This document shows positions 34,518 to 44,293 of a DNA stretch of 64,000 nucleotides, piece by piece; the stretch's first letter is position 1; each line of letters opens with the position of its first letter. The translations under genes and the position numbers were made by a program. The notes below the pieces were generated by a model, which was given only the letters and a program-made list of their open reading frames with translations, ran no database searches and had not been told where the DNA came from. Location of the stretch: positions 1-64,000 of the forward strand of contig JBIOIY010000002.1 in the NCBI GenBank assembly GCA_044450345.1, in the 5' to 3' direction. The DNA is from Thermodesulfovibrionales bacterium (GTDB lineage: Bacteria; Nitrospirota; Thermodesulfovibrionia; Thermodesulfovibrionales; UBA6898).

Positions 34518-34596
34518 ATAACGCCCCCAGCTCCCTGCCTGCCCTCAGACATGGCGCTCTCCCCCTCTTTAACAAAGAGGGGGGTAGGGGAGTTAT
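34518..34596. repeat. Palindromic repeat element with a nested degenerate CCTGCC mini-palindrome
   Basis: ATAACGCCCC...GGGGAGTTAT outer stem; CCCCCTCTTT-AAC-AAAGAGGGGG inner stem; CCTGCCTGCCCTCAGACATGG at 34534-34554. Confidence 0.55.
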
Positions 34597-41695: not shown

Positions 41696-41752
41696 TTGAG
41701 GCGGTGCAGTCACATCCCGAGACTTTAGTTTATACGTAAGGAGGATACCGAT

Positions 41753-41953
41753 ATGGCGAACGGAACAGTGAAGTGGTTCAACGAGTCAAAGGGTTTTGGC
41801 TTCATCACCACGGAAGACAGCGGCGATGTATTCGTCCACTATTCCGCCATCCAGAGCAACGGGTTTAAGTCCCTTGCCGAGGGTGATGCGGTCAGCTTCG
41901 ACATTGAAAAGGGCCCCAAGGGTCCCAAGGCAATAAATGTAACGAAGGTCTAG
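41753..41953 (+). CDS. csp: Cold-shock protein
   Basis: [15 protein letters not shown] and DVFVHYSAI (RNP1/RNP2); AAGGAGG SD. Confidence 0.97.
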
Positions 41954-41973
41954 TCGGCTTCACTCAATTGAAG

Positions 41974-42005
41974 AAAAAAGTCCCCCTGCGAAGGGGGATT
42001 TTTTT
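41974..42005 (+). terminator. Intrinsic terminator after csp
   Basis: AAAAAAGTCCCCCT-GCGA-AGGGGGATTTTTTT. Confidence 0.85.
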
Positions 42006-42052
42006 GTCTTCCCGTCCTAAGTAAATCATCAAAGTTCTCGTTTTACACATTA

Positions 42053-42186
42053 TGACGGAGGGACTGTCTTTTCGCTCATTCCCTGCCTGCCAGCAGGCAG
42101 GTCGCTTCGCTCCGAGGCAATTTCTCGCCTCGCCTGCGGCAGGCAATACGAGAAATTGAAGCCGCTCAAAGACAGCCCCTCCATTA
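42053..42186. repeat. Fold-back element family A, copy 2 (3' of csp)
   Basis: Arms TGACGGAGGGACTGTCTTT / AAAGACAGCCCCTCCATTA; internal CAATTTCTCG..CGAGAAATTG stem; nested CCTGCCTGCCAGCAGGCAGG. Confidence 0.85.
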
Positions 42187-42222
42187 CGGCTGAATAATAT
42201 GTTAGGTGAGGCGGCCTGGTGT

Positions 42223-42244
42223 CTCGGAGCGAAGAAATGAGCGA
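42223..42244 (-). repeat. Inverted partial core of family A without a nested palindrome
   Basis: Reverse complement TCGCTCATTTCTTCGCTCCGAG matches the core of copies 2 and 3. Confidence 0.6.
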
Positions 42245-42355
42245 GAATGCGGATCCGTTGACTTTTTCCTCAGGATTATTCTATAAAGAATAAGGGCCGG
42301 CATCATTCACGGCCCTTCGCAGTGAAATCTTGTTACTACTATTGTGAGGTGTGAT

Positions 42356-44293
42356 ATGACTGTTCAGAAATTCGAATTTAAGACGGAAGTAAAAGAGCTT
42401 CTCAACCTGATGATCCATTCCCTCTATTCCCATAAGGAGATCTTCGTCCGTGAACTTATCTCTAACGCCTCGGATGCTATTGACAAGGCGCGTTATGAGT
42501 CGCTTACAAAGAGCGATATCATCGATAACGCCGGTCCCTGGAAGATCATGATAAAAAGAGACAAGGCCGCGGGCACGCTGACTGTGAGCGATAACGGCAT
42601 CGGCATGACAATGGATGAGATAGTCGATGCCCTCGGCACTATCGCCCATTCCGGAACTACGGACTTTCTCAAGGCGCTGCACGACAAGGACGTCAAAGAC
42701 CTGCCTACCGGACAGGCAGGCAAGCCCGACCTCATAGGACAGTTCGGCGTCGGTTTTTATTCGTCTTTTATGGTGGCCGACACGGTGACGGTCATTTCGA
42801 GAAAGGCCGGTACAACGGATAAAAAGGCGGTCTCTTGGCAATCCGCTGCGGACGGTTCCTTTGAAGTCGGAGTTGCCGAGAAAGAAACGGTCGGCACGGA
42901 CGTTGTGCTGTATCTTAAAGAGGAGGAAAAGAAATACCTCGAAGAATGGGAGTTGAGGACCGTCATCAAGAAATACTCCGACTACATCGAATACCCGATC
43001 GTCATGGAGGTGGAAAGGGAAAAGGAGGATGAAAAGGAGAAGGGCAAAAAGGTCAATGTGACCGAGGAGGAGAGGGTCAACTCGGGAAAGGCGATATGGC
43101 TGAAAGATAAGTCCGAGGTTCAGGACGACGAATATAAGGAATTTTACCGGCATATCTCTCATGATTTCGGCGACCCTGCGAAGGTCATCCATTATAAGGC
43201 GGAGGGGACCTCGGAGTTTACCGCCCTTCTTTATGTACCGGCCAAGGCGCCTTTCGGGATGTTTTATAAGGATTACAAGATCGGCCCGTCCCTTTATGTA
43301 AAAAGGGTGCAGATTATGGACCATTGTGAACAGCTTGTTCCGGAATACCTCCGGTTTGTGAAAGGTGTGGTCGATTCGTCGGACCTTCCCCTGAACGTGT
43401 CGAGGGAGATACTCCAGAACAACAGGCATGTGGAGATCATAAAAAAAAATATCGTCAAGAAGGTGCTCGATGGCCTCGCCGATATGAAAAAGAATGAATA
43501 CGTTCAGTATGTCGATTTTTATAAAGAGTTCGGCAGGGTCCTGAAGGAGGGTATCCATTACGATCTGTCAAAAAAAGAACAGATATCAGATCTTCTCCTT
43601 TTTCCCTCCACAAAGACCGGGGCGGATACATTCACGACCCTTCAGGATTACGTGAGCGGGATGCCGGAGGGCCAGGAGAGCATCTATTATATTACCGGAA
43701 GGACATACGAGGAAGCCTCCAAGTCCCCCTATCTTGAGGCATTCAGAGACAAGGAGTACGAGGTGCTGATCATGCTGGACGAGATCGATGATTTTATTAT
43801 GGGCGGCCTCCTTGAGTACAAAGGCAAGAAATTGAGGTCTGTGGTCAAAGGCGACATCGATCTCGATAAGGACGGCACTTCCGCGAAGGAAAAGGTGAAA
43901 GGCGAATTCGAGAAACTGATCGAGTTCATCAGGGAGATGCTGCGGGACGATGTCAAGGACGTACGCCTCTCCGGAAGGCTGAAGGACTCGGCCTGCTGTC
44001 TTGTTACGGAAGAGGGCGGACTCGACCCCAACATGGAAAAAATCCTGAAGGCGATGGGGCAGGAGGTCCCTTCTACGAAGAGGATCCTCGAAATAAACCC
44101 TTCACATCCGCTCCTTGAAACCATGAAAGGAGTTCTGGAGAAAGAGGGGAGGGCGCCCGTGCTGAAGGAATTCGCAGAACTCCTCTATAACCAGGCATTG
44201 CTGCTCGAAGGATCACGGCCGAAAGACCCTGCAGCATTTGTTAAGTCTGTTGCAAAACTGATGGTCGATAACGCAAAACAAAAGACCGGCTGA
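42356..44293 (+). CDS. htpG: Molecular chaperone HtpG (Hsp90)
   Basis: MIHSLYSHKEIFVRELISNASDA, DNGIGM, IGQFGVGFYS and DLPLNVSRE motifs; GAGGTG SD before ATG 42356. Confidence 0.97.
   Translation: MTVQKFEFKTEVKELLNLMIHSLYSHKEIFVRELISNASDAIDKARYESLTKSDIIDNAGPWKIMIKRDKAAGTLTVSDNGIGMTMDEIVDALGTIAHSGTTDFLKALHDKDVKDLPTGQAGKPDLIGQFGVGFYSSFMVADTVTVISRKAGTTDKKAVSWQSAADGSFEVGVAEKETVGTDVVLYLKEEEKKYLEEWELRTVIKKYSDYIEYPIVMEVEREKEDEKEKGKKVNVTEEERVNSGKAIWLKDKSEVQDDEYKEFYRHISHDFGDPAKVIHYKAEGTSEFTALLYVPAKAPFGMFYKDYKIGPSLYVKRVQIMDHCEQLVPEYLRFVKGVVDSSDLPLNVSREILQNNRHVEIIKKNIVKKVLDGLADMKKNEYVQYVDFYKEFGRVLKEGIHYDLSKKEQISDLLLFPSTKTGADTFTTLQDYVSGMPEGQESIYYITGRTYEEASKSPYLEAFRDKEYEVLIMLDEIDDFIMGGLLEYKGKKLRSVVKGDIDLDKDGTSAKEKVKGEFEKLIEFIREMLRDDVKDVRLSGRLKDSACCLVTEEGGLDPNMEKILKAMGQEVPSTKRILEINPSHPLLETMKGVLEKEGRAPVLKEFAELLYNQALLLEGSRPKDPAAFVKSVAKLMVDNAKQKTG
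42700..42720. repeat. 21-nt mini-palindrome inserted in frame in htpG
   Basis: CCTGCCT-ACCGGAC-AGGCAGG; near-identical to 42082-42101. Confidence 0.75.

Follow-up and report, generated by a model that had tools for sequence, protein, structure and literature searches.

How does a palindrome of only 21 nucleotides (nt) come to lie, in frame, inside the gene for a chaperone? The question arises in a 64,000-nt stretch of DNA from a soil bacterium of the Thermodesulfovibrionales (contig JBIOIY010000002.1, positions 1 to 64,000; hereafter the window), in which htpG carries the hairpin sequence CCTGCCTACCGGACAGGCAGG. A sequence-only reading of the window had noted this hairpin together with two look-alikes, and had proposed an ultra-short mobile palindrome that survives in genes only when its length is a multiple of three and that writes short peptides into proteins. 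From the comparisons reported here we conclude that the htpG copy is probably a recent and precise 21-nt insertion, made without target duplication, of one member of a family of miniature hairpins found across phyla, most likely derived from an NTS/SRM-type hairpin loaded with the element.

The position of the palindrome within htpG, in frame, was borne out by inspection of the sequence and by a check of the reading frame (coordinates in Table 1). htpG is the sole long frame in the region, and the insert supplies residues L116-P-T-G-Q-A-G122, flanked by D115 and K123. In a computed fold as single-stranded DNA (ssDNA), the 21-mer forms a hairpin with a 7-bp stem and a 7-nt loop at −6.1 kcal/mol. 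The host protein has the GHKL N-domain motifs NASDA, DNGIGM and LIGQFGVGFYS and resembles HtpG over its full length, with 61-89% identity to the proteins of relatives over 645 amino acids. Its residues 8-227 align with the E. coli HtpG chains 1y4s/2iop at an E-value of about 5e-65, and in this alignment an 8-residue gap faces LPTGQAGK. The insert stands directly before LIGQFGVGFYS in the N-terminal ATPase domain, in the segment that forms the lid of that domain (the ATP lid). In an AlphaFold2 model of the N-domain, built from a 20-sequence alignment with a mean predicted local distance difference test score (pLDDT) of 74, the whole lid (model residues 92-124) scores below 50; the model therefore informs on the location of the insert only, which it puts between two helices in a part of the lid that is poorly modelled.

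Relatives of the organism have the same gene with the site empty. Among the 41 genomes searched, namely the window's own (G000) and 40 relatives, HtpG was found in 24; the lid could be read in 22 relatives, and one further (23rd) locus ends before it. All 22 lids, at the level of genus, family and order, are shorter by exactly these seven codons, and no relative was seen to encode a lid of the same length with non-palindromic codons. In the closest relative, G004, whose HtpG is 89% identical, the empty site reads GTCAAGGAC/AAGCCGGAGCTT (also given as GTCAAGGAC/AAGCCGGAG; here and below a slash marks an insertion point), whereas the window reads GTCAAAGAC-21 nt-AAGCCCGACCTC. Alignment of the two reveals no target duplication; as the insert has a C on either side of it, its boundary can be placed at either of two positions 1 nt apart.

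The insertion also varies among wild strains. Parts of the window occur in public metagenome contigs from 20 runs belonging to 8 studies, of which four runs from four studies were compared. All four yielded contigs that are 98-99% identical to the window and lack exactly the 21 nt at 42700: run X1 (record 1; 13 differences over 801 nt compared), run X5 (record 6; 9 differences), run X7 (record 14; 10 differences) and run X9 (record 27; 2 differences). Run X9 also yielded a contig that bears the insert (record 28), aligned over 156 nt without gaps and with 7 differences, its htpG flanks being 42 and 93 nt long; one of the differences, A42707G, lies within the element and turns it into CCTGCCTGCCGGACAGGCAGG. 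As contigs both with and without the insert occur in the wild, the htpG allele segregates in nature, and the insert allele is not fixed in the species.

The insert is, moreover, one copy among many. In the G000 assembly (3.19 Mb in 86 contigs, 51% G+C) the htpG sequence, which we call variant B, has 6 exact copies, the one in htpG included, and variant A, the 20-nt perfect palindrome CCTGCCTGCCGGCAGGCAGG, has 11; a second 21-nt variant reads CCATGCCTGCCGGCAGGCAGG. Altogether 44 sites lie within 3 errors of the element, of which about 4 look like chance, leaving roughly 40 copies. The motif is far more frequent than base composition would lead one to expect, as window shuffles, genome counts and a reversed control all indicate: CCTGCC-N6-10-GGCAGG is found twice in the window against 0.02 expected, a count of 2 was reached in 0 of 100 shuffles, and the reversed pattern gave 0 matches in all 41 genomes. 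Both look-alikes reported by the sequence-only reading proved genuine. The 20-nt sibling in non-coding DNA is nested at a fixed position of the R3 repeat family (...CGCTCATTC/TCGCTTCGCTCCGAGG), and the degenerate copy, its left half intact, occupies the usual place inside a repeat of the R2 family (...ATAACGCCCCCAGCTC/.../CGCTCTCCCCCTCTTT).

Most copies in G000 live inside other repeats. Judged by their flanks, 33 of the 44 sites are nested in four other repeat families, comprising hairpins of the type GTCATTCC..GGAATC (14 sites), the roughly 120-nt repeat R2 (11 sites), the repeat R3, one copy of which lies upstream of htpG (5 sites), and heptamer-like repeats (3 sites); the other 11 sites, htpG included, lie elsewhere. 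Wherever R3 occurs (5 times in G000, with related copies in G021), the palindrome stands at one fixed point within it. The GTCATTCC..GGAATC hairpins fit the Neisseria NTS motif CGTCATTCCCGCGMAVGCGGGAATCYRG as it is given in the part of Chenal et al. 2025 (PMC11893778) drawn on here, and G000 has 61 such NTS-like hairpins, among them 5 that agree with the NTS core consensus and 1 that agrees with the full one. As the same host repeat occurs in filled and empty versions, the inserted unit is defined to the base: the empty version is shorter by precisely 20 or 21 nt, and the junctions show no duplicated target. Such pairs were found at GTCATTCCGGCTTG/TCCGGAATC, with 10 empty copies and with B and a 20-nt variant as fillings; at GTCATTCCCG/CTTGTCGGGAATC, with 8 empty copies and B as the filling; at ...GAAGCGCG/TCGGGAATC, with 2 empty copies and both B and A as fillings; at GTCATTCCCGCG/AAGGCGGGAATC, with 2 copies in either state; and in the R2 repeat, where 9 copies hold 21 nt and 1 is empty. 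In other genomes the element is nested in itself, at its central CCGG.

The host hairpins are themselves changeable. In the spacer after hemC (C8; L152:2860-3099), NTS-like hairpins of G000 form an inverted, REPIN-like doublet with one arm loaded with the 21-mer; the doublet is absent from the orthologous site of G004, and the spacer measures 187 nt in G000 against 42 nt in G004. Hairpin clusters vary between congeners.

Table 1. Features in the window related to the htpG insert (positions counted from the first letter of the window)
Feature	Positions	Strand	Description
htpG (Hsp90-family chaperone)	42356..44293	+	intact 645-codon frame, ATG 42356, stop 44291-44293
21-nt mini-palindrome, variant B, CCTGCCTACCGGACAGGCAGG, in frame in htpG	42700..42720	+	encodes LPTGQAG
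20-nt sibling, CCTGCCTGCCAGCAGGCAGG	42082-42101		non-coding; one mismatch from the perfect palindrome (variant A)
Decayed copy of the element	34534..34554		left half CCTGCCTGCC intact, right half decayed
Composite inverted-repeat element, R3 family	42057..42250		between the cold-shock gene and htpG

Within the R3 composite, outer arms lie at 42057-42071 and 42168-42182, an inner hairpin at 42118-42158 and a partial inverted copy at 42204-42234. An Rfam search of positions 41700-42900 gave no match for the composite or for the element. Upstream of the 66-amino-acid cold-shock gene (41753-41953), a leader resembling the cspA thermoregulator (41700-42006) matched RF01766 at 72.9 bits, just below the gathering score of 78, the match being clipped at its 5' end by the search range. 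GC and AT skew within ±10 kb of 19 asymmetric copies on the draft contigs of G000 had no consistent sign.

Across the 41 genomes the element is distributed patchily. Variant A (at most one mismatch) occurs in 19 genomes and is limited to three of the order's 13 families, one of them with a single match; variant B (at most two mismatches) occurs in 13, is limited to two families, and is present in other genera and in another family of the order besides that of G000. The highest copy number belongs to G012, with 31 A and 34 B matches. A scan with one genome per species returned at least 123 loci (L025-L147), and the 123 matches listed, to which all counts on distant loci below refer, come from Patescibacteria, Bacteroidota, Omnitrophota, Planctomycetota, Chloroflexota, Nitrospirota, Gammaproteobacteria and Bdellovibrionales, cultured isolates among them. 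A further 102 stretches with the element were found in IMG/VR viral contigs. The element is letter-for-letter the same across many phyla and in viral contigs, and at the distant loci it often lies in larger hairpins, in short tandem repeats or in itself. It is cosmopolitan rather than private to G000, and its main form is the 20-nt palindrome. Searches of the accessible literature with exact 12-, 14-, 20- and 21-mers returned no description of it (the 12-mer occurs only in two zebrafish nf1 papers), and the peptides LPAGRQ, LPTGQAG, PACRQAG and LPAGQAG returned nothing; combining GIY-YIG, palindromic repeats, tRNA gene and mobility gave no paper on the element, judged by titles and abstract openings.

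The junctions of these copies show some regularity. At the distant loci, TC/element/CG flanks occur at 11 of 127 sites, and a C follows the A8-oriented element in 33 of 55 loci (p = 4e-8), which hints at either a 1-nt junction overlap or a 21-nt unit made of the 20-mer plus C. In G000, 5'-GA precedes 5 of 7 B copies, against 3 of 21 and 1 of 27 elsewhere. Flanks of the form GA/element/CAAG are absent at the 123 distant matches listed, L136 alone having CAAG only.

Copies inside genes bear on how such an element can persist there. Among the 123 matches listed, the core measures 20 nt in 97 and 21 nt in 26, and the 21-nt forms are enriched in genes: a Pfam-supported gene surrounds 9 of the 26, against 6 of the 97 20-nt copies (Fisher p = 0.0005). 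Under a strict count, with the 21-nt element inside the matched domain, five of the 26 remain (p = 0.05), in peptidase C26, peptidase S58, FtsW, S6 and UxaC. The six genic 20-nt cases are FtsK, RfbB-like, S6, ScpB, DapF and TrpRS. In DapF a run of G that lies five bases downstream of the 20-mer is longer by one G, giving a net gain of 21 nt relative to G071 and G072 (85-87% identical), and the same 21-column gap is seen in G074 and the more distant G084. The TrpRS case has gained exactly 7 codons, GLPAGRQ, relative to close relatives. For FtsK the relatives are too divergent (72%) to resolve an empty site, and the 20-nt in-gene copy at L100 had no match in 25 relatives. Copies thus stay in genes because the frame is restored, by the 21-nt variant or by a nearby +1. 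The multiple-of-three filter proposed earlier stands for the net insertion, given the enrichment of 21-nt forms in genes and the net 21 nt in DapF and TrpRS, but fails for the length of the core itself. The accompanying proposal, of an ultra-short mobile palindrome that writes short peptides into proteins, gains support from the clean seven-codon indel and from the repeat family.

The peptide written depends on the frame. Among the matches listed, copies in Pfam-supported bacterial genes are strongly biased, with 13 reading LPxGxQ, 2 reading PAxRxxx and 0 reading CLPxxR, whereas in long viral open reading frames (ORFs) the corresponding counts are 14:7:21, with no bias. As the viral ORFs are unbiased, and only 3 of 38 distinct ones have a Pfam match, we do not claim a general frame rule. 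In thirteen 21-nt copies from IMG/VR (L260-L329), a single variable base is added next to the central CCGG. These copies fall within long open frames for several unrelated, unannotated viral proteins and read (A/T)CL(P/T/S)xRQ(V/A), a frame that differs from the one used in bacterial genes.

Two more in-frame copies occur in G000 itself, each as part of a composite. A histidine kinase gene (C5; L151:2749-4092, minus strand) contains, between its N box and its G1 (DxGxG) box, an in-frame nested repeat reading ...RNPPPHLPTGQTGPSQEG..., in which a copy of the 21-mer with one mismatch encodes LPTGQTG. This kinase has no clear orthologue; its best match (G006, 46% identity) has other filler of similar length in the same loop. 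A gene for a NifE/N-like fusion of 928 amino acids (C79; L176:870-3653, minus strand) has an additional 42 residues in frame before INLIGEYN, encoded by a 126-nt composite of an R2 repeat and a 21-nt variant of the element, read as AMPAGRQGA. This insert is absent from G004 and G003, which have 25 residues here against 67 in G000.

The flanks of the htpG copy suggest where it came from. Variant, orientation and the flanks GA/element/CAAGCC are those of loaded hairpins of the form TTCCGGA/B/CAAGCCGGAATGACA, found in G000 at C8:55822, C15:6670, C23:35956 and C25:1837 and also in G004 (L190). The identity at the junction amounts to 2+6 nt, a value reached by 0.7% of 20,000 random genome positions when compared with any copy. 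GGA stands to the left of the site in G004 and in both X9 alleles, and with G004 the match widens to 3+9 nt, so that its empty site, GGA/CAAGCCGGA, has 12 nt in common with the hairpin loop. To judge from these letters, the ancestral htpG site appears to mimic the loop of an NTS-like hairpin, the element's commonest home in G000. Of the 142 GACAAGCC sites in the genome 3 are filled: 2 among the roughly 22 that lie in hairpins and 1 among the other 120 or so. We read the entry into htpG as copied from, or targeted like, a loaded NTS-type hairpin. A family of miniature hairpins, consisting of the 20-nt CCTGCCTGCCGGCAGGCAGG and its 21-nt variants, would multiply within genomes; in G000 it resides mostly in the single-stranded loops formed by other hairpin repeats, those of NTS/SRM type foremost. 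The element would enter htpG while the DNA is single-stranded, either copied by way of short flanking homology or placed by a sequence-preferring enzyme, and the ends of the insert would then be joined. The gene would stay open and the allele persist because the insert is 21 nt long, free of stops and encodes the Gly/Pro-rich LPTGQAG in what is probably a flexible loop of the lid.

Several observations weigh against this account. In G000 itself the flank match spans just the 2+6 bases, with no flanking bases co-converted, and about 119 other GACAAGCC sites outside hairpins are unfilled. Computed folding of the empty htpG site gave no hairpin whose loop would hold the target. In distant phyla, the matches listed share no such flanks at their insertion sites, and therefore a homology-free route must exist. 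Both X9 alleles, with and without the insert, carry 42697G and 42724A relative to the window; as they share these two flanking single-nucleotide polymorphisms, the state of insertion does not follow them, a pattern in short, low-depth contigs with which recurrent insertion, precise loss or recombination may each be compatible. Nor does any enzyme track the element across the 41 genomes. Small GIY-YIG genes do not follow copy number, and PF01797 (Y1), present in 31 of the 41, is unrelated to it: the copy-richest genome, G012, has no PF01797 match (the genome is 70% complete), while G008, G010 and G014 have 0 20-mers and none or a single 2-mismatch match to the 21-mer, yet 3-5 PF01797 matches. 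The 137 ORFs within 800 bp of the copies in G000 are ordinary genes, with no Y1 transposase among them.

Two alternatives would dispense with the insertion altogether. The long lid might be ancestral, or an adaptive extension, lost by the relatives and only coincidentally like the repeat, and it is true that lid length differs between Hsp90 families and that E. coli HtpG is 8 residues shorter here. We nevertheless regard this as barely credible, and reject the long lid as the ancestral state, since it is contradicted by five further copies of the identical 21 nt in the genome, by the short lids of all 22 relatives of genus, family and order, and by the empty wild alleles in strains 98-99% identical to the window. 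Slightly less far-fetched, but still highly improbable, is an artefact of assembly or binning in which a repeat-induced chimera put the 21-mer in htpG. G000 is a draft in 86 contigs, and short k-mers are ambiguous here because the 27 bases of B plus CAAGCC occur elsewhere in the genome; however, an independent X9 contig from another study has the insert at the same place, and the reading frame is exactly kept. If the 21-mer was inserted, as we think, it may have needed no mobility protein: a nascent strand or a released ssDNA fragment of a loaded hairpin would anneal to the htpG flanks GGA and CAAGCCGGA, and the hairpin would loop out and be fixed as an insertion. The identity of variant, orientation and flanks with the loaded hairpins of G000 and G004, the lack of target duplication, the 1-nt junction overlap and the want of any mobility gene that correlates with copy number all agree with such enzyme-free, templated copying. 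We hold it to be rather doubtful all the same, as the stretches of homology are tiny, some 119 equivalent sites stand empty, first arrivals at many dissimilar sites are left unexplained, and letter-perfect conservation across phyla is easier to explain with a protein that reads the sequence.

Such a protein is the core of the other route, in which a trans-acting enzyme would recognize the hairpin and place it at preferred GGA/CAAGCC or GA/CGCGC sites, htpG being hit as a mimic of a hot spot rather than through homology to a donor. The best candidate would be an Ssn-type mini GIY-YIG nuclease whose gene is lodged in a tRNA gene, with an HUH/Y1 transposase as the alternative; taken as a whole, we consider this route unlikely too, and the data do not separate it from homology-templated copying. 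What commends it is a recurrent layout in which the element lies 10-60 nt upstream of a mini GIY-YIG ORF and directly after a duplicated tRNA 5' part ending in ...GGCAGA or ...GGTAGA, seen in two relatives (L216/L219; L220), a WWE3 genome (L092), L136, L142 and L057. In the two relatives, G021 and G022, the order is a tRNA-Leu 5' part ending in GGCAGA, the element, CGC(G/A)C..., the GIY-YIG ORF and a complete tRNA-Leu, with 19 further bases between tRNA part and element in one of the two cassettes; L092 repeats the sequence of tRNA part, element and GIY-YIG gene. A GIY-YIG gene lies within 200 nt at 5 of the 123 matches listed, far above chance for a gene of 80 amino acids. The junction GA/element/CGC(G/A)C is common to the tRNA-Leu cassettes and the hairpin loops of G000, the 20-nt and 21-nt variants share the same two loop positions, and the C that so often follows the element at distant loci also fits a protein with a preferred site. 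Ssn GIY-YIG proteins are described, in the part of PMC11893778 drawn on here, as ssDNA nucleases that bind hairpin repeats, but as cutting upstream of the hairpin and not in its loop. A tRNA-lodged GIY-YIG gene is present in G000 as well: L228 (C12:102-311, minus strand) encodes an 81-amino-acid, single-domain protein directly 5' of tRNA-Ser(UGA), preceded by a duplicate of the tRNA-Ser 5' end as in a cassette lodged in the tRNA gene, the palindrome being absent. Against the enzyme stands the distribution of these genes. Among the relatives, homologues of the cassette nuclease at 72% identity or more are restricted to the 2 in which the gene adjoins the element; in the genomes rich in copies the best match is 36% identical (G000, G017) or there is none (G013, G012), and small GIY-YIG genes are also present in the copy-free genomes G034, G029, G025, G016, G010 and G037. 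At 0 of 80 viral loci does a GIY-YIG gene lie within 400 nt, and Y1 transposases do not follow copy number across the 41 genomes. GIY-YIG nucleases cut DNA and are not known to join it.

Set against described repeats, the element seems closest in behaviour to the small dispersed repeats (SDR) of cyanobacteria. These repeats, reportedly described by Elhai et al. in 2008, are said to be palindromic, of ~20 nt, apparently mobile and mutually nested, with precise insertion and no obvious transposase. The element has the same size of ~20 nt, nests in itself at the central CCGG and forms precise 20- or 21-nt filled and empty pairs; unlike the SDR, it probably has another sequence, occurs in many phyla and in viral contigs instead of one phylum, and has in-frame copies in housekeeping genes and a link to tRNA/GIY-YIG cassettes, neither of which is known from the SDR.

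The NTS/SRM repeats are likewise multicopy hairpins, in some genomes paired with a single-domain GIY-YIG gene of about 80-95 amino acids. In the part of Chenal et al. 2025 (PMC11893778) drawn on here, the Ssn nucleases cut ssDNA and affect transformation, that part describes no repeat insertion or in-frame copies, and the SRM motif is HGTCWY..YYVSBRH..WNVSBRG..RNCYNB, about 28-30 nt with oriented, non-palindromic flanks. Compared with that motif by eye, the element is only 20-21 nt and lacks the GTC lead and asymmetric flanks, whereas the host hairpins do fit. The element is thus not itself an SRM but a guest inside SRM loops, and its link to the nuclease is weak in this lineage, with no co-distribution in the 41 genomes. 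A GIY-YIG gene is adjacent at 5 of the 123 matches listed, at 0 of 80 viral loci and in 2 relatives.

Repetitive extragenic palindromes (REP) and their doublets (REPIN), which are paired with REP-associated tyrosine transposases (RAYT; Bertels & Rainey 2011, PMC3116915; Di Nocera et al. 2013, PMC3733652, each drawn on in part), likewise consist of short palindromes, 20-40 bp long, that multiply inside the genome. REP palindromes have a conserved GTAG or CGTC tetranucleotide at one end (PMC3733652, in the same part), whereas the element starts with CCTG and ends with CAGG; its unit is a single hairpin rather than a doublet, the inverted doublets being formed by the host NTS-like hairpins instead; and it is found inside genes, while Y1/RAYT genes neither track it nor adjoin its copies. 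Miniature inverted-repeat transposable elements, as outlined in the part of PMC10969869 drawn on here, are derived from insertion sequences, measure 50-500 bp and have terminal inverted repeats and target-site duplications; the element measures 20-21 nt and shows no duplication at any resolved junction. The same part of PMC10969869 describes the Rickettsia palindromic elements as selfish sequences of about 150 bp, confined to Rickettsia, that lie in frame in unrelated housekeeping genes and are translated. The element shares the in-frame insertion but differs in size (20-21 nt, or 7 amino acids) and in being cosmopolitan. The 126-nt composite repeat in frame in the NifE/N-like gene of G000 is the case most like a Rickettsia element.

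New here are an allele that segregates in the wild, filled and empty pairs that are exact to the base within one genome, nesting in the loops of NTS/SRM hairpins and a genic target site that appears to mimic such a loop. The segregating allele and the filled and empty pairs make the mechanism testable by reporter assays on the GGA/CAAGCCGGA site. The case also links the element to NTS/SRM hairpins, whose biology has only recently begun to be described. A bolder interpretation, which we offer tentatively and with some doubt of our own, is that the element would be the smallest self-propagating unit of DNA yet observed in bacteria. It would be a pan-bacterial hairpin that travels horizontally and either is recognized by a conserved protein, which may be the mini GIY-YIG nuclease lodged in tRNA genes, or exploits the replication of ssDNA. 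Inserting without a footprint into hairpin loops and look-alike sites in genes, it would continually add Gly/Pro loops of 7 residues to essential proteins, and selection on frame and peptide would determine which copies remain. If this is true, the element would confound alignments, quality checks of metagenome-assembled genomes and gene calling, and would be an unrecognized source of short indels in conserved proteins such as chaperones, tRNA synthetases, FtsK and ribosomal protein S6.

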